In this document: positions 5,965 through 21,684 of the stretch, in pieces
How the letters are laid out: each line of letters starts with the position of its first letter
How positions within the stretch are numbered: position 1 is the first letter of the stretch
Assembly: GCA_900318605.1 (NCBI GenBank)
Contig: ONLJ01000011.1
Coordinates: forward strand, 1-39,108
DNA length: 39,108 bases
Direction of reading: 5' to 3'
Source: an uncultured Rhodospirillaceae bacterium
GTDB lineage: Bacteria; Pseudomonadota; Alphaproteobacteria; RF32; CAG-239
Program-made: the position numbers and the translations under genes
Notes under the pieces: model-generated
What the model was told of the DNA's origin: nothing
Databases searched by the model: none
What the model saw: only the letters and a program-made list of their open reading frames with translations

Positions 5965-5982
5965 TGTCTTTTTCTCTGCAAA

Positions 5983-7263
5983 TTATTTTTTATTCGCCTG
6001 CCAACCTTTAGCCGCACGACTGATACAATCATCATATCTTCCGCAAAATGTTTTTGGCATAGCTATTTTTCCACACACAATTTTTTGACCGACATCTAAA
6101 ATTTCCGGAATTTCCCAAACTTTATTTTCCAACTTATAACGAGCCAAATCGGCAAAAAGACGCGCCTCCATAAAATCCCCGAAATTAGACTGTTTGATAA
6201 CCGGCTCATACGCAAATTTTTCCCGTAAGTTTGCAAAACTCTTTTCATGTTCCGGTAAAATAAAAACTTTTCCTGCTAATAACTTTTCAAAACTTTGACG
6301 AACAACCGGATTTTTCCAACCTCCTCCGAATAAAATAATTTGAGCCGGCATTTTTATATTATCAGGAAGCAGTGTCAGAGCCTGAACGGCAATATATGCA
6401 GCGGCATATTCAAATGTATGAACTACATCTTCAAACGAAATATTTTCCTGTTGCACATATTGAAAAATTCGGCTCTTATGATAATAAGCCGGATCTCCCG
6501 ATTTCGGTAAAGGAGTTTCATAAAAATCCCGTCCGCAATTAAAAATTTCTTTCAGTAATTTTTCGTTCAAATTTCCGTTTTTACCGAACATTCCGTCTTT
6601 ATCATAACTTTCGGCAGAATACCGACGAATATAATTATCGGTATATTCATTAAACGGACCGGCATCTGTACCGAGTAACGCCTTTTTCTCATTTATAATT
6701 GCAAAATTTGAAGTATTTCCGCCGTTATAATAGATACCATCACCTTCCGAAACGGAAATATGAGCATTGTGAGGTGCTACCAATGGTGCGCCGTCAAATC
6801 CTTTCATCAACGGATCAGAACGAAAATCATAAACTACCGGAATACCTGTCAAATCAGCCAACATTTGTCCCGAGCCGATTTGCAATGTATAAGCTTGTGT
6901 CCCGTCAATTTTCGCTTTGGAAGGCGGATTATGATCCAAAGTTTTACCATGAAAGCCGATTGCATCAATAGTAGATTTGTCAATATTATTTTCCCGACAC
7001 ATTTCATTTATACATTCGGCAATCTGCTTTACATAATCATCGTGAACAGATTGAAAATCCGGAATATTTTTGATTTCTTCCGCAGTTTTATTAAAAACTT
7101 CCACCCTTAAATATTCAATCCTTTCCTGCATATTTTTCGTATAAGGACGGGTAAAAGTACAAATATCGGTCATTTTATCACCGTCAAACTCAGTTAATAC
7201 CAAGTCGATGGCATCCATCGAATTTCCCGTCATATTTCCGATTATTTTATATTTTGCCATCAT
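5983..7263 (-). CDS. Anhydro-N-acetylmuramic acid kinase (AnmK)/levoglucosan kinase family protein
   Basis: The family pattern runs along the whole length: GNMTGNSMDAIDLVL, GFHGKTLDH, TLQIGSGQMLADLTGIPVVYDFRSDP...FDGAPLV, YNGGNTSN, TDAGPFNEYTDNY, YDKDGMFGKNGNLNEKLL, LPKSGDP, ILFGGGWKNP. Start set to the ATG pair 7263/7260, preceded by GAGGAG. The ORF-track start 7290 would overlap the upstream gene by 44 nt. Confidence 0.7.
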   Translation of the reverse strand: MMAKYKIIGNMTGNSMDAIDLVLTEFDGDKMTDICTFTRPYTKNMQERIEYLRVEVFNKTAEEIKNIPDFQSVHDDYVKQIAECINEMCRENNIDKSTIDAIGFHGKTLDHNPPSKAKIDGTQAYTLQIGSGQMLADLTGIPVVYDFRSDPLMKGFDGAPLVAPHNAHISVSEGDGIYYNGGNTSNFAIINEKKALLGTDAGPFNEYTDNYIRRYSAESYDKDGMFGKNGNLNEKLLKEIFNCGRDFYETPLPKSGDPAYYHKSRIFQYVQQENISFEDVVHTFEYAAAYIAVQALTLLPDNIKMPAQIILFGGGWKNPVVRQSFEKLLAGKVFILPEHEKSFANLREKFAYEPVIKQSNFGDFMEARLFADLARYKLENKVWEIPEILDVGQKIVCGKIAMPKTFCGRYDDCISRAAKGWQANKK

Positions 7264-8854
7264 ATTCTCCTCTTTTACCTTGCCATTCAATATCTTTTGT
7301 TCTTAAAATACATCTCAAAACATCATAAAATGCTTCAACCAACACACAAGGTTTCACTGCCGAGGTAACCCTTAAATCTGAAGGCCAATGCGAAGGCGGC
7401 ACAAAACATTCAATCGGAATAACCGAAACATTGCAGTCATTCAATATCCGCAAAAAAAGTTCGTAAGCAGTCTGTCGACTGTTTTTTAATCTGATAATAA
7501 TATTAGGTGATACATCATGCAATCCGAAAATATCAAAATATTTTTCCAAATTAAATTTTCTAATCATACTCAAAATCACAAAGTTCTGAAATTTTATATG
7601 TAAATCAATCAGTTCTCTCCATATTTTAAACTCTTGCAATAAAAGAGATTTATCGGATATTTTACCTTTTAATTCCGGCGGAACAGCTGCTTTTCTTTTT
7701 TCCAAAAACGCTTTCTCATAAAAAGCCGTCAATGATACCGTATAATATAAAAAAGACGGCGGAGAACCATAGGTAGTGCTTGCATGCCGATAAAATTTAT
7801 CAATAAAGCTGGCATCGGCCAAAATATGACCTAACTTAAGTCCGGCAATATTATACATTTTAGAATACGAAGCTAATACAATCAGATTTTTATATTTTAT
7901 CGGATCAAGATACGGACTGATTTTTTCATCAAACATAATCTCGTCTGCAATAAAATAAGTTCCGAATCTGGCACATTTTTCCTGTAACACCGGTAAAAAC
8001 TTTTTAATATCGGAAAAGCCACCGGGATTATGCGGAATACTGAATAAAACCACAGCGGTTTTTTCATCAATTCCGTTAATAATATTTTCCATTGAAAAGG
8101 AATAATCCCGATTTAAGAAATATATTTCCGGCTTAAAATAATACCCGATGACATCAATTATCGGAGCATACGTCGGGACAATAACAATACATTTTTTCTG
8201 TCTGTTTCCGAGTTTGGAAATAAAAGACAAAAGTGAGTTCAACCCTTCCGTACCGCCTTGAACGACTGCCGTATTTTCGGCTGAACACTTTTTTTGATTT
8301 CTGCGAAACTGCTCCAGTTGAGCAATTTTACCACGCGTATCCCTATGCCCCAAAGAATCGGAATAACCGAACCAATCATTTTCGGCTGCGACATTTAATC
8401 CCGCTTTAACAAAGGCCGGAGGAAAAAAATAATTCGGGTCATTAACTCCCCGGCTTAAATGTATCGTATTTTTTTTCCTTTTTGATTCACCATAAACATC
8501 ATAGCGGAAAAAACAATCAAAAATTTCTTTTTTTTCTTTAAGCGGAATTTTGTTGTAATTTATCTCAGTCGGTTCTTCTCGCCAATTTTTTACTTTTTCG
8601 GATATGGAAGAAATATTCCAATTTGCACGAAAATAATTTTCATTTTTTGTTTTTTTCCACTCCTTCAGATTTAACGATTTTAATTTTTTCATCAATAAAT
8701 CATATCCGACCGGAATATCCTTTGATAAACGGATATTTTTTAACAAATTTTCTTTAATACAATTATCGACCGGAAAAGACAGGTTCAGCCGTTCAATCAA
8801 TTTTTGAGATTTTTTTTCCAGTTTATGAGCCGTATTGATAAAATCCGTGTTCAT
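7247..8854 (-). CDS. PLP-dependent aminotransferase (fold type I, class I/II) with a long Lys-rich N-terminal extension
   Basis: Core motifs: VVQGGTEGLNSLL, VIVPTYAPI, SIPHNPGG, FIADEIMFDE, and the PLP-lysine motif ASYSKMYNIAGLKLG. About 170 residues precede the recognisable aminotransferase core. Start set to ATG 8854 (MNTDFINT..., AGGAAA upstream). The ORF-track start 8968 is a likely over-extension into the divergent promoter region. Confidence 0.7.
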   Translation of the reverse strand: MNTDFINTAHKLEKKSQKLIERLNLSFPVDNCIKENLLKNIRLSKDIPVGYDLLMKKLKSLNLKEWKKTKNENYFRANWNISSISEKVKNWREEPTEINYNKIPLKEKKEIFDCFFRYDVYGESKRKKNTIHLSRGVNDPNYFFPPAFVKAGLNVAAENDWFGYSDSLGHRDTRGKIAQLEQFRRNQKKCSAENTAVVQGGTEGLNSLLSFISKLGNRQKKCIVIVPTYAPIIDVIGYYFKPEIYFLNRDYSFSMENIINGIDEKTAVVLFSIPHNPGGFSDIKKFLPVLQEKCARFGTYFIADEIMFDEKISPYLDPIKYKNLIVLASYSKMYNIAGLKLGHILADASFIDKFYRHASTTYGSPPSFLYYTVSLTAFYEKAFLEKRKAAVPPELKGKISDKSLLLQEFKIWRELIDLHIKFQNFVILSMIRKFNLEKYFDIFGLHDVSPNIIIRLKNSRQTAYELFLRILNDCNVSVIPIECFVPPSHWPSDLRVTSAVKPCVLVEAFYDVLRCILRTKDIEWQGKRGEYDGKI

Positions 8855-8984
8855 TTTATTTCCTTTTTTTAGCATCATAAACTTAAAAACAAATCTTGTC
8901 CATATAATTATTTTCTTGCCATCTTTTATAAAGTCGTATATAAACATAAATGACTTCAAACATTGCATTTTAAGGAGATTTCAA

Positions 8985-10037
8985 ATGTCTTTTGCCGATT
9001 TAATCAAACCGCATAAATTAGCTCCCGGCGACAAGGTTGCGATTATTTCCCCGTCATGGGCCGGAGCAAGTGTTTATCATGACAGATATTCAGCCGGCAT
9101 AAAGCAAATGGAAGACGAGTTCGGATTGATTGCCGTTGAAGCTCCCAACTCCATGATTGATGCACGGGAAAATGCTGATAATCCGCAAAAAAGGGCAGAT
9201 GACATAAATTGGGCAGTCAAAAATAAAGAAATTAAAGCCATTATTCCGGTAATCGGCGGTGATGATGCCGTACGTCTTTTACCATTTTTGGATTATAAAG
9301 CAATCAGAAACAACCCAAAAATCTTATTGGGCTATTCTGACGGAACCGTTTTACATTTGGCATTTTTGCACGCCGGGGTAAGATCAATCTACGGTCCGGC
9401 AATCATGGCCGGCGGCTTTGCCGAAAACGGGGGGATGTTTGATTATTTCAAAAATTCGGTCAGAAAGACACTTTTTTCAACCGACATCATCGGAAAAATC
9501 GAACCGAATATGGATGGTTGGACAGACGAAGAATTACCATGGAGAGATCCCCAAAATCAGTCCATAAAAAGAAAATTAAAAAAGTCAACCGGCAATAAAG
9601 TGTTGTTGCAAAACGGAAAAGTTCAAGGACATTTGTTCGGCGGATGCATTGAAGTATTGGAAATGCTTAAAGGGACTCCGGTATGGCCGGAAAAAGAATT
9701 TTTCAACGATGCGATACTCTTTTTTGAAACTTCGGAAGAAGCTCCGTCAATTGACTATGTTGTACGGGTATTACGCAATTATGCGGCAACCGGAATTTTG
9801 CAAAAAGCAAACGGGATTATAATCGGCCGCGGCGCTTCATTGCCCGAAAATGAAATGGACAGATACGATCAGGCATTCCTTCATGTAGTTCAAAAAGAAT
9901 GTCACTTAAATATCCCTATCATATCCCAGATGGATTTCGGACATACCGATCCGATGTTTTTATTGCCTTACGGAGCAAAAGCGGAAATTGATTCTTCAAA
10001 CGGAAGTTTTTCAATTTTGGAAAGCGCCGTCATTTAG
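8985..10037 (+). CDS. S66-family serine peptidase, MccF-like (LD-carboxypeptidase family)
   Basis: Start at ATG 8985, after AAGGAG at 8972-8977. Nucleophile motif PKILLGYSDGTVLHL, acid FFETSEE, His motif MDFGHTDPMFLLPYG. The 350-aa length and an inserted Trp-containing loop (DGWTDEELPWRDPQNQSIKRKLKK) fit the MccF clade better than the ~300-aa LdcA. Confidence 0.75.
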   Translation: MSFADLIKPHKLAPGDKVAIISPSWAGASVYHDRYSAGIKQMEDEFGLIAVEAPNSMIDARENADNPQKRADDINWAVKNKEIKAIIPVIGGDDAVRLLPFLDYKAIRNNPKILLGYSDGTVLHLAFLHAGVRSIYGPAIMAGGFAENGGMFDYFKNSVRKTLFSTDIIGKIEPNMDGWTDEELPWRDPQNQSIKRKLKKSTGNKVLLQNGKVQGHLFGGCIEVLEMLKGTPVWPEKEFFNDAILFFETSEEAPSIDYVVRVLRNYAATGILQKANGIIIGRGASLPENEMDRYDQAFLHVVQKECHLNIPIISQMDFGHTDPMFLLPYGAKAEIDSSNGSFSILESAVI

Positions 10038-10053
10038 GTTTACTCTAAGAAAA

Positions 10054-10689
10054 ATGCTGAAAAATATATTATGGGATAATGACGGCACACTGATAGATAC
10101 AGCAACTCTGTTCTGCGATGCCAACAGAGTTGCTTTATTATCAAAAAACATCTTAATGGATGAAAAACTTTTTGTAAAAATCTCGCAAAAACAGGGCAAA
10201 AGTATTTTAGAATATTATGCTCTCAAAAACTCGTGGAACGAAAAACAATTAAAAGAGTTGTATTTGCTTCGACAATCAAAATATACCGAGATGTTGAAAA
10301 ACGGTGCCGCCTTGAACTATGAAGCATTTAACCTTATCGAATGCTTAAAACAAAAAGGCATAAAAAATTTTATGGTTACCGGATCGAGTAAAAATGAACT
10401 ATTGCTTGAATACTCAAAAAAAAGCGATTTATTGGCACTGTTTGACGATATCATCACCGCAGATGACTGTGACAGGCCTAAACCGCATCCGGATTCTTTG
10501 CTTCTGATAATAAAAAAATGGCACCTTTACAGCAACGATTCGGTTGTCATCGACGACCTGCCGAGAGGAATAATTGCCGCCCGAAAAGCAGGGCTGAAAG
10601 CGATTCGTTATAACCCGTTCGTAAAAAAAAGCAAATACGCAAGTTTTTCAAAACTGTTATATTCGTTGGAAAACATTGCAAACAAATAA
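10054..10689 (+). CDS. HAD-superfamily phosphatase (subfamily IA, beta-phosphoglucomutase-like)
   Basis: Start at ATG 10054, 17 nt after the upstream stop. Motif I WDNDGTLIDT (DxDxT), motif II VTGSS, motif III/IV RPKPHPD and VVIDDLPRGIIAARKAGL. Confidence 0.75.
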   Translation: MLKNILWDNDGTLIDTATLFCDANRVALLSKNILMDEKLFVKISQKQGKSILEYYALKNSWNEKQLKELYLLRQSKYTEMLKNGAALNYEAFNLIECLKQKGIKNFMVTGSSKNELLLEYSKKSDLLALFDDIITADDCDRPKPHPDSLLLIIKKWHLYSNDSVVIDDLPRGIIAARKAGLKAIRYNPFVKKSKYASFSKLLYSLENIANK

Positions 10690-10693
10690 ATGC

Positions 10694-11803
10694 CTAGATA
10701 TGCACCGACTTAAAATTATTGATTTTTGCAATATTTTCAACCGATTTTATAATTTCCTCATTTGCCGATGAAATATAAATATTTCCGGAAATCATATCTA
10801 AAAATTCAGGCAAAAAATCGCCGGTTATTACCTTAAGATTCGGAGAAATAATACCACCGCGATATTGCTGTTTCAGACAAATCAAGACTGCTTTTTCTCC
10901 CCTATTCAAAACCTCTTTCAAATATTTCCGTGTCGAACGATTATACCCGATAAACCAATGATTAAAACACGAAAGATTATTTTTATTTTTTTTACTGTAT
11001 TGAAATTGTTCGAGCATTTTCAGTGTCTTTTTTTTCATGAGTTTCAAATCATCAGGTTGCAGCGTATCTCTCCATTCTCCGACCAAACCTTTTCTGAATA
11101 TTCTCGGTTGATTTTTATCTTTGAGATATTTCATTTCCTCACTTTTTATTTTTGAAAAACGTGAATTTTCGACCGCGTTTTCAATTTCTTTTTTGGTTCG
11201 TTTGATTTTGAGACTTTTCAATAAGTTCTTTATTGTTTTCAGCGGATTGAATTTTAAGTCTTCGTATTTGACCAAACAGAGTTGATGTCCTGCCTCGTTC
11301 CCCCATTCAATCCATTTTTCAATATAAGATGTCCAATCATCAAAAGGTTTTTTACCGTAAAATCCCTTTGTATTCAAAAAATCGCTTAAACTTCCCTTCT
11401 CATCGGAAAATCCCCTGCGCCAATTATAATATGAAATAACCGCATCTCTGGCATCTCTTACCAAAAGCACGGCTGTATGAGGTTTGGCATTAACATAACT
11501 TTCGGGATAAAAATGAGTTTTAAAAAAACGAACTTCTCTCGATTTTTCTATCACATATTTTTCTTCAAGTTGTCTCCAATGCTTGCGCCACAAAGGCAAA
11601 ACGACATCGGTTTTTCTTTTATTTTCGGAAATTTTTTCCTGATATCCTTCAATATAATCAAGCCCCAATTCCAGCAATATTCCTCCCATCAAAGAACTTC
11701 CCGAACCTAAATAGCTGGCAAGTATCACATCATCGCTTTCAAGCTTTTTTATATTTTCCGTTGCCAATTTCAAATCAGCATCTTTTTCTGAACCCGACAT
11801 CAA
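10694..11803 (-). CDS. Sulfotransferase-fold (Sulfotransfer_1-like) protein with an atypical 5'-PSB loop and a ~100-aa C-terminal extension
   Basis: 3'-phosphate-binding motif VLLVRDARDAVISYYNW, catalytic-His region FFKTHFYP, YEDLKFNP, and C-terminal FRKGLVGEWRD. The PSB loop reads SYLGSGSSLMG instead of PKSGTTW. The start overlaps the stop of the upstream gene (11800-11803). Confidence 0.75.
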   Translation of the reverse strand: MMSGSEKDADLKLATENIKKLESDDVILASYLGSGSSLMGGILLELGLDYIEGYQEKISENKRKTDVVLPLWRKHWRQLEEKYVIEKSREVRFFKTHFYPESYVNAKPHTAVLLVRDARDAVISYYNWRRGFSDEKGSLSDFLNTKGFYGKKPFDDWTSYIEKWIEWGNEAGHQLCLVKYEDLKFNPLKTIKNLLKSLKIKRTKKEIENAVENSRFSKIKSEEMKYLKDKNQPRIFRKGLVGEWRDTLQPDDLKLMKKKTLKMLEQFQYSKKNKNNLSCFNHWFIGYNRSTRKYLKEVLNRGEKAVLICLKQQYRGGIISPNLKVITGDFLPEFLDMISGNIYISSANEEIIKSVENIAKINNFKSVHI

Positions 11804-12564
11804 AATACTCCGTTATAAAATTTATTGCTCTCATATTTATTTAAATCTTCAATCGTATCAACTTCAATCCAACCGCCGTGAACAATCACGCCTTTAATCG
11901 GATTTCCGGCATTTATCAGATGTTGTAAAAATGTCGTCATATACATATTTTGATATGTTTTTCCGTCATAATCGGCAAACTTATTCATACTTTTATAAAA
12001 GCTGATAATTTCAGGAAGAACATTTTTTTTAAATTTCGTTAATCCGATATATTGCGCTTGTATTCGTGCATAATCTTTCGTTTTTTTCCCGAGTTCCAAA
12101 ATATTATTTTCTTCGGAAAGTATTAAACTCTCAGCATCATCAAGCGGATTATCCATACGAAATCGCCATAATTTTTCCCAATTTTTATCCACTATTGTTG
12201 CAATATTTGCCTCGGAGTTTATCAGTTTTTCCAAGTTATCGAAAGTATAAACAATATCGGAATATGAAACAATCACATCATCATTCAACTCGTTTTCACA
12301 AGAAAACAATGTAGTAACCATATTTGATTTTTCATAATTTTCGGCAAAATATACCTTAACATTTGAACCGGATAAATGCTCTTTTAAGACATCGAATTTA
12401 TATCCGCCGATAACAACAATATCGGAAATACCGTTTTTCTTAAATCTTTCGATAATGATGTCAATCAGAGGTTTTCCGTTCAGTAATACCATACATTTCG
12501 GCACCTCATTTGTCAGAGGTCGCAAACGATTTCCCTGTCCTGCCGCTAAAATAATTGCTTTCAT
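11800..12564 (-). CDS. Nucleotidyltransferase; Cj1416-like CTP:phosphoglutamine cytidylyltransferase candidate
   Basis: 254 aa with the N-terminal NTP-transferase signature MKAIILAAGQGNRLRPLTNEVPKCMV. 4-nt overlaps at both ends. Sits in the context of the three other phosphoramidate-pathway families. Confidence 0.7.
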   Translation of the reverse strand: MKAIILAAGQGNRLRPLTNEVPKCMVLLNGKPLIDIIIERFKKNGISDIVVIGGYKFDVLKEHLSGSNVKVYFAENYEKSNMVTTLFSCENELNDDVIVSYSDIVYTFDNLEKLINSEANIATIVDKNWEKLWRFRMDNPLDDAESLILSEENNILELGKKTKDYARIQAQYIGLTKFKKNVLPEIISFYKSMNKFADYDGKTYQNMYMTTFLQHLINAGNPIKGVIVHGGWIEVDTIEDLNKYESNKFYNGVF

Positions 12565-13175
12565 TTTTCGTTTTTCCCTTCAAAAATTTTTTGGAATAAT
12601 TTTATATCTTCGAGTTGAAAAATTTTTTCTCTTTCCGGATGCCACATAACAGCATAAATGCTTTTATATTTATGATGAAACGCTTCGATAATACCGTCAA
12701 ATGAAACATAATCCGCCTCAAAATCTTCAGGAATGTTTTTAACTGCATAATTATGAAAAGAATTGACCGATCTTCTTAAATTCTCTCCGCGGATTTCGTG
12801 AGATATCGCCACATGATTTTTAACCGATTGCAATGAGCCTCCGAAAAAATTGTTTATTTGCTGCATTCCGTGGCATACCCCGATAACCGGCATATTCGCT
12901 TTGATTGCTTCTTGAAGCAATTTTTTTTCAAATGTATCTCTGATTTTATTGACCTCTTCGGAACTGACGGAAAAAAGGTCATTTCCACCGGAAAGCACGA
13001 TTCCCGATATTTCCATTTTTTGCAAAAACTGCAGAATATCATGTTTTACAGATATCGGAATCAAAAAGAATCCGCAACTTTTCATAAACTCATACCATCT
13101 CACATCGAGAGATTCTCTTATTTCCCGACCGTCATATTCACTTGATATTCTTTGAGTAATGGCAATATTTATCAT
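12561..13175 (-). CDS. Class I glutamine amidotransferase / peptidase C26; Cj1417-like gamma-glutamyl-CDP-amidate hydrolase candidate
   Basis: 204 aa with the nucleophile elbow PVIGVCHGMQQIN and a His-Glu pair in VMWHPERE. 4-nt overlaps with both neighbours. Confidence 0.7.
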   Translation of the reverse strand: MINIAITQRISSEYDGREIRESLDVRWYEFMKSCGFFLIPISVKHDILQFLQKMEISGIVLSGGNDLFSVSSEEVNKIRDTFEKKLLQEAIKANMPVIGVCHGMQQINNFFGGSLQSVKNHVAISHEIRGENLRRSVNSFHNYAVKNIPEDFEADYVSFDGIIEAFHHKYKSIYAVMWHPEREKIFQLEDIKLFQKIFEGKNEK

Positions 13176-15514
13176 CTGATTATCCTTAACTGTTTATTTA
13201 ATGCATCTATTTCGATAAATTCAGCTTTTCGCAGCTCATTAAACCGTTTTTCTCCGATACCTATTACGGCAGGAATATTTTGTTCCATACAGCGAATAGC
13301 CATATGTGAATTAGCCCCGCCGAATTGAGTAATCAGTCCGGCAATATTTTTGGTAAAAATAAAATCATATCCCGGATCAGCCGCTCTGATACAAATAATC
13401 TTATTTTGACAATCAGCATTATGTATTTCTTCTTCACAAATCACTTTAGCTTTAACTTTTCTCTGAGTTACATAATTAGGAATATTTTCATTCTGCTCAA
13501 AGCAAAAAATATCTTTTGCCGAACAGAAAACTTCCGGAAGTTTAACGTATTTGGTATAATAATAATTTATTTTACTTTGGTTGATTTTATTTTGCAAAAA
13601 CTCTTTTTTTTCTTTCACTGTTTCAAAATGTTCAAGCAAATCATAAATCGAAACGTATGATATATCTTCTTTTGAAATTGATAAAGAATGAGCATATTCC
13701 CCAATCAGGAGCAATATATGACTCAAGATTTTTGTGAATATAAATTTACTTTTATCCCGCCACAAAATACTGTCTTCTATGCAATTTAGCAAGTATTTGG
13801 CAGAAAAATTAAGACCTTCCCGTACCAATAACTCATCAATTTTTTGCAGTTGTTTTTGCGTGAAAGAATTTTTTTTCAGAGGTTTTTCAGCAATCGAACT
13901 TGATGTTGACATATTGAAATACGAATTAAAATCTTCATCATATCTCAATGAAAGAATATCATAAGAACTCGGCCGCAAATGTCCCCATTTTTCCAAAAAT
14001 TTTTTTTGAGTTATTTTTTTGTTTCTGAGTTTAACAATATCGAATTGTATTTCTTCGGAAATTATGGGAATCGAACAAATAAAATCATTGTACTGTTGCA
14101 AAGTTATAATTTTCTTTTCCAAAAACGAATCCAAAAATTGTTTTCCGATAAAAGCTGTTCTGGCAATCCCCGCAAACGGCAATGTTCCGAATTTTTTGCA
14201 CGCTTCAAGCAACTCTTTTGTTTTTTCTTCAAAACTCATTTTTTTTGCAAACAACAATTTGCAATTTTCCTGCAATTTTTGCACTGAAAGAATGTCTTTT
14301 TTATACAGCGGAACCGGATAATTAAAAACACTGTTTGTTATTTTTCTCAAAGAACTTAAAAACTCGTTGATTTGCTTTGGCGACAATAAATCGGAAAATT
14401 TTTCCTTAATATTATCGCCGGAAGTTAACGTTGCTGCCGTAAATAAAATGCTGAATTCAGCTTTATCATGCAATTCAGGATTTTTTTCCAAAGCCCTTAA
14501 ATAATAATCCGTAATCTTGCGAGATGTCTTTTTGCTTAAATCGGACGGAATAAAAGAATTAAAATCCGTTCTCACATCAATATACGGACATCCCATAAAA
14601 GAATGAAGCAAACGATAAGGTGCCACATTTTTATAACCGTAATTTTTACGCTGGATTGCCCAGATATCATCGGTTATCAGGGCTTTATATAATGACAAAG
14701 CCAACGGATTCGGACATGTACCGATCATTTCGGCAGGATTCCAATCCGTCATCATGCTGAATATATTACCTTTACCGTCCAACTTATTTTTTCTGCTGTT
14801 ATTTTTGATTTCCTGATAAAGTAATTTCAATTTATCAAAAAAAAGTTCATCTGATATTTTTTCTCTTGTAAAAGAACTCTGGACAATCAGCGGTCGAACT
14901 TGAAAAATGTACAATTTTTTTTGCTTATCAAAGGCAAATTCAATATCCAATGTATCGGAATCATAAATACGTTCTATTTCTTTTACAGCAGATAATAACG
15001 ATTTTATCGGCAACTCTCCCGACAATTTATTCAATTTAACAGACCGTGAAATAACTATGGTTTTTCCCTGTCCCGAACCGGACGTAATCGTATTTGTCTT
15101 ACCGTCATTGGTATAATTGATAATATAATAAGGCGCACCGGTTGCATGATCACGAGTAAACATAACGCCGGAGATCCAAATATCCTTCAGCATCGGTTGG
15201 ATTAAAATTTCATCTTCATCATTGCGATAATCTTTTGTGACAGCGTCAATAGCCTTAACCAAACTTTTTGAATCCGGTTCGACATTCAAAACGGATTTAT
15301 AAACACCGGCATTGGATTGCTCGGCTCGATCTTCGTTATATGCAGATGAGCGAACAATTACCTCAGATTTAAATGCCGATTTAATTTGATTTAAGAAAAA
15401 ATTTTTATTTTTTTTATATTCGGAAAACAAAAAACACAACAAAGGAAGAATTTCAAATTTTTTTGCTTTGTTTTTTAAAAAAATCAGATTTTGCGCCTTT
15501 GAATTTAAAGTCAT
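13172..15514 (-). CDS. ATP-grasp plus phosphohistidine-swivel enzyme; Cj1418-like L-glutamine kinase candidate
   Basis: 780 aa. N-terminal PPDK_N/ATP-grasp signature VIVRSSAYNEDRAEQSNAGVYKSVLNV. The PEP-utilizer mobile-domain His motif (LITQFGGANSHMAIRCMEQNIPAVIG) is at the extreme C-terminus, so there is no PEP/pyruvate-binding TIM-barrel domain as in PpsA/PPDK. Confidence 0.7.
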   Translation of the reverse strand: MTLNSKAQNLIFLKNKAKKFEILPLLCFLFSEYKKNKNFFLNQIKSAFKSEVIVRSSAYNEDRAEQSNAGVYKSVLNVEPDSKSLVKAIDAVTKDYRNDEDEILIQPMLKDIWISGVMFTRDHATGAPYYIINYTNDGKTNTITSGSGQGKTIVISRSVKLNKLSGELPIKSLLSAVKEIERIYDSDTLDIEFAFDKQKKLYIFQVRPLIVQSSFTREKISDELFFDKLKLLYQEIKNNSRKNKLDGKGNIFSMMTDWNPAEMIGTCPNPLALSLYKALITDDIWAIQRKNYGYKNVAPYRLLHSFMGCPYIDVRTDFNSFIPSDLSKKTSRKITDYYLRALEKNPELHDKAEFSILFTAATLTSGDNIKEKFSDLLSPKQINEFLSSLRKITNSVFNYPVPLYKKDILSVQKLQENCKLLFAKKMSFEEKTKELLEACKKFGTLPFAGIARTAFIGKQFLDSFLEKKIITLQQYNDFICSIPIISEEIQFDIVKLRNKKITQKKFLEKWGHLRPSSYDILSLRYDEDFNSYFNMSTSSSIAEKPLKKNSFTQKQLQKIDELLVREGLNFSAKYLLNCIEDSILWRDKSKFIFTKILSHILLLIGEYAHSLSISKEDISYVSIYDLLEHFETVKEKKEFLQNKINQSKINYYYTKYVKLPEVFCSAKDIFCFEQNENIPNYVTQRKVKAKVICEEEIHNADCQNKIICIRAADPGYDFIFTKNIAGLITQFGGANSHMAIRCMEQNIPAVIGIGEKRFNELRKAEFIEIDALNKQLRIIR

Positions 15515-16272
15515 TTTTTACATTTTCCGTTCCATGTTCTGCAAGTATATTTCACAAAAAACTCATCAGGCAGTTTTGCATAAATTTTATCGCATATTCG
15601 ATTGAATATTTTCTCTCCTTCCGGCGTAGCCAAATCCCAATATTTATTCTTAACGCTTTTCCATGCCTTTATGTAGTTTTCCAAGGTCTGCTTAAAATTA
15701 AAATCCATTTCCATATACATTATATCAGTAAAAAGATTCGAATTTTCAATAACTTCGCGTTGGTCTTGTCTTCTGATACCGCGTTCATAATCAGGAATTA
15801 TTTCTTTTATAATTGCTTCAACCTCTTTTTGAAAACCATCATTTAAATCCCGATGATTCCACAAGCAGGAAAAGACGCCGTTTTTTTTCAGGATTCTACC
15901 GGTTTCATGCAAGGCCTTATTTCTATCCAATACATTAAAACTGCTTCCGAAAGCAACTAAATCAAAAGAATCATCAGACAATGTCGTATTATAACCGTCC
16001 GCATCAATCCACGTAATTTGTTTCAAATTTTTCGTTCTTTCTTTTCCGATATCCGACATCGCTTTCGTCGGCTCGACGGCTTTTATAAAACAGGGATATT
16101 TTGCCAATAAAACGCTCAAATTACCGGTTCCGGCACCGATATCGGCAACCTCGAAATTATCAATTAAGGACAAATTCCCGTATTCAATGATGCAATCAAT
16201 AACTTTTTGCGGATAGTTCGGTCTGTATTTATAATACGGGGCTTGAAGCGTATAATCCCAATTTTCGGCCAT
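15511..16272 (-). CDS. Class I SAM-dependent methyltransferase (Cj1419/Cj1420-like candidate)
   Basis: 253 aa with SAM motif I VADIGAGTGNLSVLL and post-I/II motifs AVEPT, FDLVAFGSSFNVL, LKKNGVF. 4-nt overlap with the downstream gene and a 1-nt gap to the upstream gene. Confidence 0.75.
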   Translation of the reverse strand: MAENWDYTLQAPYYKYRPNYPQKVIDCIIEYGNLSLIDNFEVADIGAGTGNLSVLLAKYPCFIKAVEPTKAMSDIGKERTKNLKQITWIDADGYNTTLSDDSFDLVAFGSSFNVLDRNKALHETGRILKKNGVFSCLWNHRDLNDGFQKEVEAIIKEIIPDYERGIRRQDQREVIENSNLFTDIMYMEMDFNFKQTLENYIKAWKSVKNKYWDLATPEGEKIFNRICDKIYAKLPDEFFVKYTCRTWNGKCKK

Positions 16273-16273
16273 T

Positions 16274-16789
16274 TCAGCATTCCTTGACTAAGTCCAGTAT
16301 CATTTCTGCTTTTTTTTCGATATTCCCGTCATCGTTATTATCAATAGTTAAGGATATAAAAGGAGGAAAATCATACTGTTGGTTAATTCCGACAATATTT
16401 TTTGTAGCACCGATATCTTTTTTATACAACCCTTTTTTATCTCTTTGTTTAATTTTTTCGAGGTCGGCAACAATCAATATAACTTTATGGTTGGCGATAT
16501 TTTTCGCATTAAATTCATGAATTTCGGAAAACATTGATATGGTAGCGGCCACAACGTTTATCCCCTGATCCGTCAAAAGTTTGCACAGTCCGGATATTCT
16601 CTTGGCGTTTTGTAATCTTTCCGGCAAAGAATATCCAAGGTCATAATCACACATTTTTCTTACGCAATCGCCGTCAATCAGTACCCAATTTTTTGCCTTT
16701 TGTTTTAACCTATTGTATAAACTTGTAGCGATTGTTGTTTTTCCGACTCCGGAAAAACCGGTAATCCAAATCAGTTGTCCTTTTTGCAT
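16274..16789 (-). CDS. APS-kinase-fold nucleotide 3'-kinase; Cj1415-like cytidine diphosphoramidate kinase candidate
   Basis: 171 aa with P-loop WITGFSGVGKTTIA, then LIDGDCVR and the overall size of CysC-type adenylylsulfate kinases. No ATP sulfurylase gene is nearby. Confidence 0.7.
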   Translation of the reverse strand: MQKGQLIWITGFSGVGKTTIATSLYNRLKQKAKNWVLIDGDCVRKMCDYDLGYSLPERLQNAKRISGLCKLLTDQGINVVAATISMFSEIHEFNAKNIANHKVILIVADLEKIKQRDKKGLYKKDIGATKNIVGINQQYDFPPFISLTIDNNDDGNIEKKAEMILDLVKEC

Positions 16790-16842
16790 TTTACGATACC
16801 TTTTCTGATATTAAAATGACCAATACTCAAAATGACTGATGC

Positions 16843-18042
16843 TTATCGTTCCAGTCCTATTTTAATTTGCGAAACCTTCAAAGCGGCAGGTATTATCTGT
16901 TGAGGTCTGGATAGAAAAGTATATAACTGAACCAAATTTTCCGTTTCCGCAACTTTTTCCAATTTACGATTATAAATTTTATAGCCATTATCCGTAACGA
17001 TAATATTAGTCGGACAAGATAAAAATTGCGAACATTTCTGACGATTGATAACGGACACATTCGTACGGTCATCAACAGCCACGCTAAGCCCCAGACTTTT
17101 CATCCGTTCATAAGTCATATTAGCAAGCGGCTTTAATTTTTGCTGCAACGGAATCACAACATAATCAAAAGGCCTCAAACACTCCGGCAAATTGAAACCG
17201 TATTCATCTCGGTTCGCATCCATTATTGAGAACAAAGTCCTTTGTGTCCCCATACCATAGGTCAAAAACAAAGGTTTTACTTTTTTATTTTCCGAATTTG
17301 TATATTTCAATTTGACCGGTTTATCGGTTGTGTAATGATAATACATTGCTAAGCTGAGAGCTTTTGTTTTTTTGCTTTCATCAATTTGAGGAAGATACAC
17401 ATTTTCCTTTCCGGCCTCGGATAAATAAAAATATTCCGCCATAAGTTTATCGCCGTTATCCTGTTTGTAAAAAGGCAAGCGAAAAGTCGAAAAAATCGAT
17501 TGTGTTAACGAATCAAACATCTCGGAAGATTTAATCAATGAATTCCTGTCGGTATCCACGGAAAAACCTCCAAACATTTTGAATTGTTTCCCTCTTAAGA
17601 AATGCCTCGGATCAGCCATATTGCGATAAAAATTGGTTGAATAAACATATCTCAAAGGCAGTTGAGAGTGCGACAAGTTATTATCCGACAAAACCTTAAT
17701 AAACAAAGGTTCAGGAGTCATCATTAAATGAAATCCCTCCATTTTTCCGGACAGATACATAATTTTGCTTCTGAATTGTTGCCCGATTTCCTGACCCTGT
17801 TCCAAAACATTGTTATCAATAATCGTCGGCGGTTCGATTTGTTCCATACCATAATTGTCAGCTATATCCATCATCGTATTTTCCATATTTCTGACAATCT
17901 TTATACCCAGAGGCGTTAAAAGAGGAATGGCATTAGTATCAAAACAAAACAAAATATCGTTCAACAAATTTTCCGTAGGCTGTTGATTAAACGGCTCACG
18001 CAGATTATAGTTGTTAATATTGATTTGTTTAGATAAAAACAT
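16843..18042 (-). CDS. Class IIa aminoacyl-tRNA synthetase paralogue (ProRS-like catalytic core plus anticodon-binding-like domain, no editing domain)
   Basis: 399 aa. LLTPLGIKIVRNMENTMMDIADNYGMEQIEPPTI (motif 1 region). HLMMTPEPLF...LSHSQLPLRYVYSTNFYRNMADPRHFLRGKQFKMFGGFSV (motif 2 with the Arg retained). LTYGMGTQRTLFSIMD (motif 3, G.G..R). C-terminal FDYVVIPL...GLSVAVDDR resembles a class IIa anticodon-binding domain. Far too divergent from canonical bacterial ProRS to be the housekeeping enzyme. Confidence 0.65.
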   Translation of the reverse strand: MFLSKQININNYNLREPFNQQPTENLLNDILFCFDTNAIPLLTPLGIKIVRNMENTMMDIADNYGMEQIEPPTIIDNNVLEQGQEIGQQFRSKIMYLSGKMEGFHLMMTPEPLFIKVLSDNNLSHSQLPLRYVYSTNFYRNMADPRHFLRGKQFKMFGGFSVDTDRNSLIKSSEMFDSLTQSIFSTFRLPFYKQDNGDKLMAEYFYLSEAGKENVYLPQIDESKKTKALSLAMYYHYTTDKPVKLKYTNSENKKVKPLFLTYGMGTQRTLFSIMDANRDEYGFNLPECLRPFDYVVIPLQQKLKPLANMTYERMKSLGLSVAVDDRTNVSVINRQKCSQFLSCPTNIIVTDNGYKIYNRKLEKVAETENLVQLYTFLSRPQQIIPAALKVSQIKIGLER

Positions 18043-18053
18043 TACTTACATCC

Positions 18054-20525
18054 TTAATCGCGGGTTTTCCTGCACAGATTTATCAATCTCGGCAACAAAG
18101 TTTTCTTATCACGAATAACAATGACTTTAACGTCTTCTCCGAGTGAACTTCTGTAAGACTGAATCTTTTGATCACGGCTTTCGGAAATAGTTCTTTCGAT
18201 ATCTTCATTTGAAGCCTCGGCATCAACCGACAACTCGCACTTCTTTTTACCGTTAACGGTTAACGGAATAGCGATTTCGTTAGTTCTGAAGTCAATTAAA
18301 GAGCTTTCGATTTCCGGCCACTTATCGGTAAATATCGAACGTTTTTGCGCAAAGCATTCTCTCCATAACGTATCAGCCGTATGCGGTGTGAATACCCCGA
18401 TAACCTTAAGAAATTCTTTCATTGCCAAACGCTGTACTTTTCCCGATTCGCTGTCTTCATTGATTTTATCTCTGTTTTTAGCGAGTACGTTCGCAAATTT
18501 ATATATTTTAGCAATCGCCACGTGAAAAGATTGATTGTCCTCTATTTCGCGACGCACATCTTTGGCTGTGTGATGAAGTTCCGCCAAAAGGAACTTATCT
18601 TTCTGACTTAAGTTTTCGGCAACAATCGATTCATCTTCACGCGGTTTAACGGTTCTGTACATACCAACCAACGAACCCAAAAATTTCTTTTTGGCCTGCA
18701 ATCCCGTTTCACTCCATTCCGTATCCAACTGGAACGGCTTATCCGACAACAAATATAAACGCAAAGCATCGGCACCGTATTTTTCAATCATTTCATCAGG
18801 ACGAACAACATTTCCCAAAGACTTTGACATCTTATGTCCGCCCAGTTTGACAATACCGTTATCCAAAAAGTTCTTAACCGGCTCTTTAACCGGAGTCAAA
18901 CCGAGTTTATAAAGAAAATGAGACATAAAACGCAGATAAATCATATGCTGATTGGCATGTTCCAAACCGCCGACATAATAATCAATCGGCATCCATTTTT
19001 TTGCTTTTTGCGGGTTCCAAGGTTGTTCATCATTATGCGGATCCAAAAAACGCCATACATACCACGCCGAACACATAAAGGTATCCAACGTATCCGTTTC
19101 TCGTGTACATATTTCTCCGGTTTGCGGATTTTTATAATTCAAAAATGACTCGTCAACGGTCAGCGGCGATCTACCTTTAGCCAACTCAAAATTCATCTCT
19201 TTCGGCAGTCTTACCGGCAACTCATCTTCTTGAACCGGCTTAAAGTTGCCGCTGCTATCCTTTACAAACGGAATCGGACATCCCCAAAAACGCTGTCTTG
19301 AAATCGACCAATCTTTAAGCTTGTACCTTATTTTTCGCTCGCCGATATTTTTCTTTTCCATATAATCCGAGATAAACTCTCTTGCCTGATTACTTGTTTT
19401 TCCGTTCAATAGCCAACTGTGAATCATCTTATCTTCACCATCAACCAACTTAGGCAAATAATCCAAATTCCGCTTTTGCGCAAATGCGGCATCTTTTTCA
19501 TTTATTGCCGGAATACACGCAACGATTCCCGTACCTTCCGTCGGCATAATATGATCGGATACAAAGACCGGGATCTGTTTTCTGGTCAACGGGTGGATAA
19601 CATAACTTCCGGTAAAGACAGATGATAAATCCGCTTGAGAAACCCTTTCGGTCGAACTTTTCAACAAAGCTTTTTTGATATATTCATCCATTGCATCTTT
19701 TTGAGACGGCACCGTTAATAAATCTGCCAAATCATGTTCCGGAGCAACATAAAGTGCGGAAATACCGAAAACAAATTCCGGATTTTGAATAAAGGTTGTC
19801 ATGTTGAACTTTTGCTCATCATCGGAAAAATGCAAATCGACTCCTTCCATTCTCCCAATCCAGTTACGTTGCATTGCTATAGCCTGAGAAGACCAATTAA
19901 GTTCATCCAATCCGTTCCACAAATCTTCGGCATAATCGGTAATTCTGACAAACCACTGTTCCATTTTTTTTCTTTGAATGGGAGCACCGCTTCTCCAACC
20001 TTTTCCGTCAATAACCTGCTCATTGGCCAAAACAGTTTTATCGACCGGATCCCAATTTACCCACTCATCGGCCCGATATAAAAGATTATTTTCGTAAAGC
20101 TTCAAAATCAGCCACTGTGTCCATTTATAATACTCCGGAGAAGCCGTAACGATTTCTCTGTCCAAATCAAAGGAAAAACCCATCGGTCCGATTTGTTCGT
20201 CTCGCATTTTTTCAATATTTTTTTGAGTCCATTTTTCCGGATGAACATTATTCTTAATTGCGGCATTTTCGGCAGGTAGTCCGAAAGCATCCCAACCGAT
20301 GGGATGTAAAACATCTTTTCCCATAAAACGTTCCAAACGCGCCAACGTATCGGAAATTGAATACACCAGTGCGTGTCCCATGTGCGCATTTCCAGAAGGA
20401 TATGGAAACATACCGAGAATATATGATTTTTGTCCCGATGTTTCACGAGTCGTATCGACTCCTTCTTCTTTCCATTTTCTTTGAATTTCTTCTTCTTGCT
20501 GCCTTATATTCATAGCTTCAGCCAT
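18054..20525 (-). CDS. leuS: Leucyl-tRNA synthetase (bacterial type, atypical/reduced)
   Basis: 823 aa with MFPYPSGNAHMGH (HIGH), GWDAFGLPAENAAIKNN, VLANEQVIDG, RDW-type [42 protein letters not shown] (KMSKS) and YGADALRLYLL. Confidence 0.93.
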   Translation of the reverse strand: MAEAMNIRQQEEEIQRKWKEEGVDTTRETSGQKSYILGMFPYPSGNAHMGHALVYSISDTLARLERFMGKDVLHPIGWDAFGLPAENAAIKNNVHPEKWTQKNIEKMRDEQIGPMGFSFDLDREIVTASPEYYKWTQWLILKLYENNLLYRADEWVNWDPVDKTVLANEQVIDGKGWRSGAPIQRKKMEQWFVRITDYAEDLWNGLDELNWSSQAIAMQRNWIGRMEGVDLHFSDDEQKFNMTTFIQNPEFVFGISALYVAPEHDLADLLTVPSQKDAMDEYIKKALLKSSTERVSQADLSSVFTGSYVIHPLTRKQIPVFVSDHIMPTEGTGIVACIPAINEKDAAFAQKRNLDYLPKLVDGEDKMIHSWLLNGKTSNQAREFISDYMEKKNIGERKIRYKLKDWSISRQRFWGCPIPFVKDSSGNFKPVQEDELPVRLPKEMNFELAKGRSPLTVDESFLNYKNPQTGEICTRETDTLDTFMCSAWYVWRFLDPHNDEQPWNPQKAKKWMPIDYYVGGLEHANQHMIYLRFMSHFLYKLGLTPVKEPVKNFLDNGIVKLGGHKMSKSLGNVVRPDEMIEKYGADALRLYLLSDKPFQLDTEWSETGLQAKKKFLGSLVGMYRTVKPREDESIVAENLSQKDKFLLAELHHTAKDVRREIEDNQSFHVAIAKIYKFANVLAKNRDKINEDSESGKVQRLAMKEFLKVIGVFTPHTADTLWRECFAQKRSIFTDKWPEIESSLIDFRTNEIAIPLTVNGKKKCELSVDAEASNEDIERTISESRDQKIQSYRSSLGEDVKVIVIRDKKTLLPRLINLCRKTRD

Positions 20526-21336: not shown

Positions 21337-21411
21337 ACAATCCTCCTTTTTTTCGATAAATAAAGGGAGAAACACTTATGCCTTCTCCCTTTATTTTACA
21401 AAGTTTTCGGA

Positions 21412-21627
21412 TTATTCAGCAGCAGCCAAAGTGCAACCGCAATCTTCGTCTAAATACATAACGGCTTTTTCCTCGCAGAAACACTTACGAGAGTAATATT
21501 CCGATTTTTTACCCTTGTTGAATTCGGAAACCGGACGATGATAGCCCATAACTCTGGTCCAAATCTCGCAAGGTTGTCTTTCAGCGTCGGTTAATTTTAC
21601 TTCGTTAATGTCAATAGTGTTGTTCAT
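21412..21627 (-). CDS. Stand-alone glycyl-radical domain subunit of class III RNR (NrdD C-terminal domain as a separate 71-aa protein)
   Basis: ERQPCEIWTRVMGYHRPVSEFNKGKKSEYYSRK matches the NrdD C-terminal R-x-x-G-Y-x-R-P-V-x-x-(W/F)-N-x-G-K-x-x-E glycyl-radical motif. Own RBS (AGAGGAA) and ATG, 57 nt after the nrdD stop. Confidence 0.75.
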   Translation of the reverse strand: MNNTIDINEVKLTDAERQPCEIWTRVMGYHRPVSEFNKGKKSEYYSRKCFCEEKAVMYLDEDCGCTLAAAE

Positions 21628-21684
21628 TTTTTATTCCTCTAAATTTTAAGTTAATACCAAATTGTTCTTTTTTTTATGTAGCTT

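Follow-up and report, generated by a model that had tools for sequence, protein, structure and literature searches.

The DNA analysed here, hereafter the window (39,108 nt of contig ONLJ01000011.1 from an uncultured Rhodospirillaceae bacterium), carries on its reverse strand a proS-like gene that starts with ATG, is preceded by an AGGA-type ribosome-binding site and encodes a 399-aa class II protein related to prolyl-tRNA synthetase (ProRS). The gene belongs to an array of eight genes on that strand, in the order leuS (coding for a leucyl-tRNA synthetase, LeuRS), proS-like, an APS-kinase-like gene, a methyltransferase gene, a PPDK-like gene and genes for an amidotransferase-fold hydrolase, a nucleotidyltransferase and a sulfotransferase-fold protein, with successive intergenic gaps of 11, 53, 1, -4, -4, -4 and -4 nt. 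An earlier note, written from the letters of the window alone, had described the gene as an orphan ProRS-like class IIa paralogue, lying between leuS (at 11 nt) and a set of phosphoramidate genes (at 53 nt); both distances were exact, and the gaps, running from 53 to -4 nt, agree with the operon-like arrangement that it proposed. The pairwise ratio of non-synonymous to synonymous substitution rates (dN/dS) of the proS-like gene was about 0.08 (two relatives, 72% identical), with 0.05-0.07 for leuS and comparable values for the cassette genes. Because of this low, leuS-like ratio, we conclude that the gene is functional and under purifying selection.

The proS-like protein and its family

The proS-like protein is derived from ProRS, in fold and in ancestry, and has retained the landmarks of adenylation. 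The Pfam model of the class II core of the G/H/P/S/T type (tRNA-synt_2b) matched it with 36.9 bits (cut-off 29.3). The best curated models were all ProRS equivalogs, none of which reached its cut-off: NF006625 (80.2 bits vs 558), NF008979 (75.4 vs 550), TIGR00409 (63.9 vs 306.7) and TIGR00408 (44.4 vs 437), so that the ProRS score of the protein stands at 14% of the cut-off. Curated models of ThrRS, SerRS, HisRS and HisZ were far weaker, and the HisZ matches were marginal (E about 1e-3) beside those to ProRS. When a profile of the family was compared with the PDB, bacterial ProRS was matched with an E value of 4e-71 and the ProRS of R. palustris (2i4l), which lacks the INS editing domain, in a single collinear stretch with 4e-60, as against about 1e-22 for ThrRS and about 1e-18 for SerRS. 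Furthermore, an AlphaFold2 model built on a 60-sequence alignment reached a predicted local distance difference test score (pLDDT) of 91.8 and a predicted template modelling score (pTM) of 0.89; nine close sequences had given a pLDDT of 50, and the 60-sequence version was the one used. The top 50 Foldseek matches to this model were all ProRS, with 2i4l as the best (TM score 0.78), at an identity of about 14-17% to the solved ProRS structures. Family profile, curated models and Foldseek all favour ProRS, in accordance with the class IIa assignment made earlier.

The layout of the protein resembles that of the INS-less alphaproteobacterial ProRS, with a catalytic core and a class IIa anticodon-binding domain in the same order, and the TxE motif and the arginines of motifs 2 and 3 are common to both. 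The absence of the INS domain, also noted earlier, was evident from two-stretch alignments that jump residues ~230-419 (~190 residues) of the 570-aa ProRS. In addition, a gap of ~60 residues relative to 2i4l showed that the remnant of an alpha-type insertion is missing too. The protein is shorter even than ProRS of the INS-less type. Motif 2, motif 3 and the C-terminal string FDYVVIPL...VAVDDR (residues 292-326) were found where the earlier note had placed them (Table 1). The C-terminal domain matched HGTP_anticodon (PF03129) with 17.9 bits, slightly under the cut-off of 21, and together with the confident structural model this match supports its reading as an anticodon-binding-like domain; PF03129 is annotated in the relatives P0093 and P0163. 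Many residues that are near-invariant in ProRS have been lost, in line with the note: FRDE is replaced by YRNM (in YRNMADPR), MKDAYSF by KMFGGFS and the EVGHIF strand by LSLAM, RPR is gone, and the loop of motif 2 has one residue less than in canonical ProRS.

The description of the gene as an orphan did not hold. A word-indexed search with the single protein found 13 clusters, all at least 72% identical, and the same kind of search with the family alignment added two distant members. An exhaustive profile search returned 1132 matches, the top ~100 of which were full-length proteins of 360-410 aa aligned in a single stretch; canonical ProRS (about 570 aa, matched in two stretches) entered only from about 1e-20. 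The family therefore amounts to about 100 clusters, counted at 50% identity, whose members have 20-40% identity with the window protein and occur in Proteobacteria, Streptomyces, one probably archaeal contig and metagenomes; an agrocin-84-like neighbourhood recurs in the family. E111 was invariant and R140, R268 and D324-D325-R326 were nearly invariant in the 60-sequence family alignment. We also aligned the relevant segments of 12 family members of known context with 8 canonical-type ProRS references. The landmarks for ATP and for the amino group were retained across the 12 members, and RDE, the RPR motif 2 loop, MKDAYSF and EVGHIF were lost in all of them, in contrast to 7 of the 8 references (the eighth, P0136, is itself atypical). 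The DDR of the anticodon-binding domain has decayed in 4 of the 12 members, is invariant in the 8 references and is intact in the window lineage. The motif 2 loop was not conserved among the aligned members, and pocket residues showed no clear pattern of covariation with the associated LeuRS or MetRS in these 12 sequences. In these comparisons, the tRNA-related motifs are unconserved across the family. A catalytically intact ProRS-like family of this kind appears to be undescribed, the sole trace of it in our literature search being the remark of a 2021 review on AgnC1 of the agrocin 84 cluster.

Gene neighbourhoods and the link to agrocin 84

From the roughly 100 clusters we sampled 11 independent contexts: the window lineage, eight loci from metagenomes or metagenome-assembled genomes (L004, L007, L010, L011, L012, L013, L018 and L019), the megaplasmid of Xenorhabdus bovienii CS03 (L014; NZ_FO818638.1, homologue WP_046338264.1) and a linear plasmid of Streptomyces sp. 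NBC_01707 (L015; NZ_CP109191.1, homologue WP_331750277.1). A Peptidase_S66 gene lies at most 7 kb from the proS-like gene in all 11, is adjacent to it in most, and overlaps it by 4 nt in L015 and L018. In addition, 9 of the 11 contexts contain genes for a truncated class IIb synthetase core (labelled 'asparagine synthetase A') and a methyltransferase of ~276 aa. The window lineage, L004, L010 and the Xenorhabdus megaplasmid also encode a LeuRS, and L013 encodes a MetRS; the cluster-linked LeuRS copies all pass the LeuRS model (785-1093 bits, cut-off 548). Integrases, transposases and toxin-antitoxin or Abi genes flank several loci. The earlier note was thus right about the adjacency of leuS but not in treating it as a mere neighbour, since leuS lies inside a conserved block and recurs in independent contexts. 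Likewise, the term paralogue is justified for the Xenorhabdus and Streptomyces plasmid relatives, whose cultured hosts have a chromosomal proS, and is presumptive for the genome of the window.

These loci resemble clusters for synthetase inhibitors of the agrocin-84 type, a known kind in which synthetase cores have been recruited. Plasmid pAgK84 of Rhizobium rhizogenes K84 (our L016/L017) encodes AgnA, AgnB1 (a methyltransferase), AgnB2 (the immunity LeuRS), AgnC1 and AgnC5 (MccF-like). In the literature, AgnA is a truncated AsnRS and has been proposed to make the 5' phosphoramidate, AgnB2 is a LeuRS whose sensitivity to the toxin is about 1000-fold lower, the target of agrocin 84 is LeuRS and not ProRS, and related actinobacterial clusters with a MetRS have been reported. 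The 2021 review describes AgnC1 as remotely ProRS-like and as an alternative candidate for joining the acyl moiety to the nucleotide, with AgnA and AgnC1 both candidates for attaching the pentanamide. In all-against-all BLASTP comparisons, the class IIb proteins of our modules shared 36-63% identity among themselves and 36-43% with AgnA, and the methyltransferases, AgnB1 included, were 40-66% identical. The proS-like family usually has AgnA-like genes as neighbours. AgnB2 scored 857.5 bits with the LeuRS model (cut-off 548).

AgnC1 resembles the window protein in its ProRS-like fold and in being encoded together with AgnA, AgnB1, the LeuRS AgnB2 and the MccF-like AgnC5; of these companions, the window shares the MccF-type S66 peptidase and the extra LeuRS, without AgnA/AgnB1. 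The homology itself is remote. BLASTP of AgnC1 against the window protein gave an E value of 0.55 and hhalign of the family profile against the single AgnC1 sequence a probability of 2.7%, and a profile of six AgnC1 homologues aligned with the family profile over 314 collinear columns with a probability of 92.8% (E 4e-7). Both groups have a 'LAM' strand in place of the EVGHIF of ProRS. However, AgnC1 lacks the motif 3 arginine and the DDR and has no Pfam match, unlike the window family, which keeps all catalytic landmarks, and agnC1 follows a small gene, agnC0, that the window lacks (tblastn with AgnC0 found nothing at E ≤ 1 in any locus). From these alignments, AgnC1 and the proS-like family appear to be remote sister groups, and we refrain from treating the window protein as an orthologue of AgnC1.

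Several individual loci are of interest in their own right. In the cultured X. bovienii the cluster (L014 1496-13678) is flanked by transposases and has the order AsnA-like, methyltransferase, LD-carboxypeptidase (S66), nucleoside phosphorylase, VOC, GloA, leuS, proS-like (annotated 'aminoacyl--tRNA ligase-related protein'), MFS transporter, aldo/keto reductase and SDR. This cluster would lend itself to experiments as a model of the family. In L013, a 511-aa MetRS (14086-15621, reverse strand) adjoins the module of AgnA-like, methyltransferase, S66 and proS-like genes in the place of LeuRS, a parallel to the MetRS genes reported from actinobacterial agrocin-like clusters. L019 (JGI 3300024432; 5334-9521) holds the full four-gene module on a contig that also encodes ribosomal proteins of archaeal/eukaryotic type (L35Ae and L16/L10e) and is probably archaeal, which suggests that the module has been transferred between domains. 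In L018 (8001-10279), the proS-like/S66 pair has an integrase, an HNH protein and an M20 peptidase upstream; no AgnA or methyltransferase gene lies upstream of the pair, the view being limited by the contig end ~300 nt downstream, and the pair may be stand-alone.

The Streptomyces plasmid (L015 3074-12783) has the order AgnA-like, AgnB1-like methyltransferase, xanthine-dehydrogenase-family enzyme, proS-like, S66 and P450. The xanthine-dehydrogenase-family enzyme is complete (FAD_binding_5; Fer2_2 with Ald_Xan_dh_C and MoCoBD), and genes for non-ribosomal peptide synthetase condensation and adenylation functions lie near the module. Phosmidosine has 8-oxoadenine as its base, and its phosphorus bears an O-methyl group. 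The compound is a Streptomyces N-prolyl phosphoramidate nucleotide that has been described as prolyl-AMP-like, and it would fit a ProRS-like enzyme combined with a methyltransferase, a phosphoramidate source and an oxidase of the xanthine-dehydrogenase type found in L015. We regard L015, by analogy, as a candidate phosmidosine-type cluster, because an N-prolyl, O-methyl, 8-oxopurine phosphoramidate would need its activities, and the connection of phosmidosine with the family as a whole is likewise put forward by analogy. No phosmidosine gene cluster was found in the searchable literature.

The conserved block and phosphoramidate cassette of the window

In the rumen alphaproteobacterial lineage of the window, AgnA and AgnB1 have been replaced by a putative phosphoramidate-making cassette. 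No homologue of either protein was found in the window or in its relatives L001, L002 and L003. The middle genes of the array resemble, at the sequence level, the Campylobacter-type O-methyl-phosphoramidate pathway, and their roles (Table 1) are assigned from the enzymology of Cj1415-Cj1418, which we take to apply here. As in Campylobacter jejuni, where Cj1415-Cj1418 occur with methyltransferases, candidates for the four enzyme types are accompanied by a methyltransferase, all in one operon-like array in the window. Unlike the C. jejuni pathway, the hydrolase match stays under its cut-off, there is no capsule context, and the cassette is joined to SULT-like, ProRS-like, MccF-like and LeuRS genes. 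The APS-kinase-family protein would phosphorylate cytidine diphosphoramidate at the 3' position. The product of Cj1415 is 3'-phospho-cytidine-5'-diphosphoramidate; because this compound is a look-alike of 3'-phosphoadenosine 5'-phosphosulfate (PAPS), the SULT-like protein, whose donor (PAPS-binding) loop is altered from PKSGTTW to LGSGSSL, may transfer phosphoramidate. It is a candidate phosphoramidate transferase on a sulfotransferase fold, with a small-molecule acceptor. We rejected the cassette methyltransferase as an orthologue of AgnB1, with 27-31% identity over only ~100-130 aa. The agnD, agnE and agnF genes of pAgK84 are annotated as PEP-utilizing, 'pyruvate kinase' and nucleotidyltransferase genes, enzyme types like those of the window cassette, and tblastn found no similarity between them and the cassette at E ≤ 1e-4.

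The block 7247-20525, from leuS to an aminotransferase gene, is common to the window and L002, with different flanks, and its proteins are 72% identical with saturated synonymous divergence. All sampled contigs of the window lineage have the same gene order, one of them being labelled as a sheep-rumen Alphaproteobacteria metagenome-assembled genome; the L001 contig stops short of the S66 gene, and in L003 the order is retained at least in part. The stop and start of proS-like and leuS overlap in L001 and L002, versus the 11 nt in the window. The leuS gene codes for a bona fide LeuRS inside this block and is a candidate self-resistance copy, and the proS-like protein is the sole adenylating or ligase-type enzyme of the block.

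At the other side of the cassette, the S66 peptidase matches B. anthracis BA3275 (3e-100) and MccF (about 1e-34), and LdcA with 2e-20 and only partially. Its start is the ATG at 8985, as indicated by PDB alignments and the gene calls of sister contigs, and not the TTG at 8835 of the mechanical list of open reading frames, from which the frame (8835-10037) would overlap the aminotransferase gene. It is 49-55% identical to the S66 proteins of L004, L007, L012 and L013, whose genes adjoin proS-like genes or sit within ~1.2 kb of them, and these identities make it an orthologue of the S66 genes that accompany proS-like genes elsewhere. We rejected the alternative of an ordinary murein-recycling LdcA next to AnmK, on the grounds of the MccF/BA3275 type and of this orthology. 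Since S66 normally neighbours the proS-like gene, the cassette sits between two usual neighbours.

Table 1. Features of the proS-like gene and of the conserved block in the window (strand - is the reverse strand; scores in bits)
Feature	Coordinates	Strand	Remarks
proS-like gene	16843..18042	-	
TxE amino-group-binding motif, T109-P110-E111	17710..17718	-	canonical ProRS has PTHEE
Motif 2, residues 137-161, NFYRNMADPRHFLRGKQFKMFGGFS	17560..17634	-	R140; F of K-Q-F kept; RDE and RPR lost
Motif 3, residues 263-275, GMGTQRTLFSIMD	17218..17256	-	R268
Class IIa anticodon-binding-type alpha/beta domain, residues ~292-380	16903..17169	-	confident in the model
leuS, 823 aa	18054..20525	-	LeuRS model 785 vs cut-off 548
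APS-kinase-family kinase	16274..16789	-	NF004041, 158 vs 127; predicted Cj1415-type role
S-adenosylmethionine-dependent methyltransferase	15511..16272	-	cassette gene
PPDK_N/phosphoenolpyruvate (PEP)-utilizer enzyme	13172..15514	-	NF004508, 862 vs 501; predicted Cj1418-type L-glutamine kinase role
Class I glutamine amidotransferase-fold hydrolase	12561..13175	-	best model gamma-glutamyl-CDP-amidate hydrolase (NF045546), 172.8, under cut-off 250
Nucleotidyltransferase	11800..12564	-	generic match; predicted Cj1416-type role
Sulfotransferase-fold protein, cytosolic-SULT-like	10694..11803	-	SULT1B1, 2.4e-12
HAD-family hydrolase	9988..10689	+	inside the conserved block
MccF-type Peptidase_S66, 350 aa	8985..10037	+	BA3275 and MccF matches
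Class I/II aminotransferase, ~160-aa N-terminal extension	7247..8968	-	last gene of the block conserved in the window and L002

Other features of the window were also recorded. The best curated model for the aminotransferase was the guanitoxin pyridoxal-phosphate cyclodehydratase GntC (80 bits, far under the cut-off), and a non-standard amino acid may be what the enzyme provides. In a comparison of the region 7000-18000 with its flanks, the cassette and aminotransferase genes showed a GC content of 0.32-0.36 and a third-position GC content (GC3) of 0.29-0.36, and the flanking housekeeping genes mostly 0.40-0.47 and 0.37-0.49, with the exception of AnmK (GC 0.37, GC3 0.30); leuS and S66 are intermediate (0.41-0.42). 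Such a composition would be consistent with part of the block having been acquired horizontally. A TrpRS gene (24402-25451, reverse strand) lies about 4 kb upstream of leuS, past nrdD and nrdG (20644-23784, reverse strand), so that three synthetase-type genes fall within a stretch of about 8.6 kb; synteny comparison suggests that TrpRS is outside the conserved block. No tRNA genes or Rfam families were found in the window, and promoter and terminator scans of it did no better than shuffles.

Proposed role, rival explanations and implications

We give a probability of roughly one half to the following reading, which concerns the enzyme and its family jointly: the proS-like enzyme would be a ProRS-derived, INS-less and probably tRNA-independent ligase that forms an adenylate of an amino acid and N-acylates a phosphoramidate to yield a mimic of an aminoacyl adenylate, with the MccF-like peptidase and LeuRS for self-protection, and the family would be a standard component of agrocin-84-like clusters for phosphoramidate nucleotides of this kind. 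In the window, the Cj1415-1418-type cassette would make an activated phosphoramidate donor, the SULT-like enzyme would move the phosphoramidate onto a small-molecule, probably nucleoside, hydroxyl, and the cassette methyltransferase would O-methylate it. The proS-like enzyme would then use ATP to activate an amino acid (proline or a leucine-like acid) and transfer its acyl moiety to the nitrogen of the phosphoramidate. This would yield an N-aminoacyl phosphoramidate, that is, a non-hydrolysable mimic of aminoacyl-AMP, from which the producer would be protected by the MccF-type S66 peptidase and the co-transcribed LeuRS. In most other contexts the phosphoramidate would come from the AgnA-like and AgnB1-like pair, here exchanged for the cassette; the two would be equivalent suppliers of (methyl)phosphoramidate, and the proS-like enzyme would be the constant acylation step across contexts.

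Four considerations point to acylation. The proS-like protein is the only ligase-type enzyme of the window block; the transferase encoded with it is of the small-molecule SULT type; MccF enzymes, known from the microcin C system, cleave the acyl-N bond of this product class; and the total synthesis of phosmidosine ends in the same reaction, in which activated proline acylates the free nucleoside phosphoramidate. Against tRNA charging we count the low ProRS score, the decay of DDR in 4 of 12 members and the unconserved motif 2 loop, and additionally the degeneracy of AgnC1 and the occurrence of the module in bacteria and, probably, an archaeon. There are partial precedents. Class II cores have been recruited as tRNA-independent ligases in EpmA/PoxA and in the SerRS-like amino acid:carrier-protein ligases; unlike the proS-like family, which keeps an anticodon-binding-type domain, these ligases, like AgnA and AsnA, belong to class IIb or derive from SerRS and no longer have their tRNA-binding domains. 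AgnA and AsnA likewise combine a synthetase core with an acyl-adenylate passed to a nucleophile other than tRNA, as would the proS-like protein. In common with microcin C (MccB and MccF), the window encodes an MccF-type S66 peptidase and its product would be an N-acyl phosphoramidate nucleotide; unlike microcin C, the open reading frames surveyed in the block include no MccB/ThiF-type enzyme or precursor peptide gene, and the N-P bond would derive from a glutamine-derived phosphoramidate donor.

Several observations weigh against this reading, and part of them are what its main rival would lead one to expect. The homology with AgnC1 is remote (BLASTP E 0.55; single-sequence hhalign 2.7%), and the function of AgnC1 is itself only a proposal; the favoured role depends on sequence and context, and we know of no class IIa enzyme that acylates a phosphoramidate nitrogen. 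As in Campylobacter, the cassette might instead serve to modify a polysaccharide. The protein has kept an anticodon-binding-type domain, confident in the model and with DDR intact in the window lineage, which would suit a tRNA binder; proS-like is coupled more tightly to leuS (11 nt, with overlap in L001 and L002) than to the cassette (53 nt); and the L018 pair, by an integrase and with no visible biosynthetic partner up to the contig end ~300 nt downstream, resembles a resistance cassette. These last features would fit a minimal but genuine, drug-insensitive ProRS which, with the MccF-type peptidase (and, in some clusters, LeuRS), resists a Pro-AMP-mimicking product, all biosynthesis being left to the AgnA-like and AgnB1-like enzymes or, here, to the cassette. 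The ATP and amino-acid landmarks are kept, the pairing with a known class of immunity enzyme is universal, another synthetase gene is tightly coupled, and phosmidosine has been described as prolyl-AMP-like and as a potential inhibitor of ProRS. In a variant of this explanation, a LeuRS/proS-like/S66 immunity island received an unrelated, capsule-type O-methyl-phosphoramidate cassette in its midst. Nevertheless, self-resistance synthetases of the AgnB2 type are recognisable as full members of their family, since AgnB2 and the cluster-linked LeuRS copies pass their model (785-1093 vs 548), whereas the proS-like protein is not (80 vs 558). Furthermore, RDE, RPR and EVGHIF are lost family-wide, the loop of motif 2 varies among members and four of them have a decayed DDR; AgnC1, as a homologue, cannot function as a synthetase, and the enzyme hit by agrocin 84 is LeuRS rather than ProRS. 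The identity elements of ProRS and tRNA-Pro differ between domains of life, and yet the module spans bacteria and a probable archaeon. Lastly, a drug-insensitive ProRS would leave the window block without an enzyme to make the acyl-N bond that the MccF-type enzyme cleaves. We therefore consider this explanation unlikely, while ranking it as the main rival. Both functional ideas of the earlier note, N-acylation and a drug-insensitive synthetase, have survived our tests, and comparative genomics now gives the former its first support.

The enzyme could instead catalyse a different biosynthetic step, forming the N-P bond through attack of an amino-acid amide on the alpha-phosphate of ATP or performing an AsnA-like amidation, with the AgnA-like protein in the complementary role. 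The class II adenylation site is kept, the review names AgnA together with AgnC1 as candidates for pentanamide attachment, and the two class II cores occur together in 9 of 11 contexts. In the window, however, the glutamine-derived cassette already supplies the N-P bond and AgnA is absent, so that acylation is the simpler constant role; this argument is one of parsimony only, and on it we hold a different step to be rather improbable. A non-catalytic, regulatory paralogue in the manner of HisZ, such as a subunit modulating LeuRS or the S66 peptidase, would agree with the weak HisZ/HisRS profile matches, the loss of the motif 3 arginine in AgnC1 and the tight coupling to leuS and S66. It is very improbable in view of the invariant E111 and the nearly invariant R140 and R268 in a family with only 20-40% identity, and of HisZ matches (E about 1e-3) that are marginal next to those of ProRS. 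Finally, adjacency to leuS and purifying selection would also be expected of a divergent housekeeping ProRS of the lineage. Yet other housekeeping proteins of the window all pass their models (SecA 1267 vs 814, ClpB 1291 vs 1232, LeuRS 785 vs 548 and TrpRS 247 vs 177). Unlike bacterial ProRS, the proS-like gene has an accessory, mobile genomic context, with relatives on the Xenorhabdus and Streptomyces accessory plasmids, and RDE, RPR, MKDAYSF and EVGHIF are lost; the nearest family members are found in unrelated organisms within the same accessory module. The protein is almost certainly not the normal ProRS of the cell.

The origin of the 5' N-acyl phosphoramidate of agrocin 84 has been open since its cluster was sequenced, the 2021 review naming candidates only, and our literature searches on AgnA with phosphoramidate and on N-acyl phosphoramidate biosynthesis returned nothing relevant. 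The core pairing of the family with MccF-type peptidases and its hybrid with a Campylobacter-type cassette also appear to be undescribed. In this regard the window is a natural experiment, in which AgnA/AgnB1 has been exchanged for a cassette of known chemistry while the ProRS-like, MccF-type and LeuRS proteins remain. The swap therefore assigns testable roles: (methyl)phosphoramidate supply to AgnA/AgnB1, acylation to the ProRS-like protein and immunity to the MccF-like protein and LeuRS. It is possible, and we propose it tentatively, that the ProRS-like family is the long-missing enzyme that links the N-acyl phosphoramidate in agrocin-84-type and phosmidosine-type mimics, and that the block 7247-20525 is a natural hybrid pathway, in which the sulfotransferase-fold enzyme would draw on a Campylobacter-type 3'-phospho-CDP-amidate donor to place a phosphoramidate on a small molecule or nucleoside, for aminoacylation by the ProRS-like enzyme.

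More generally, the analysis defines a widespread and catalytically intact family derived from aminoacyl-tRNA synthetases, whose members occur in bacteria, Xenorhabdus and Streptomyces among them, and probably also in archaea. The window also suggests that the sulfotransferase fold has been re-used for phosphoramidate transfer, and that rumen and gut bacteria may make nucleotide antibiotics directed at synthetases. If the hybrid pathway is real, gut and rumen commensals would make a previously unseen synthetase-targeting antibiotic.

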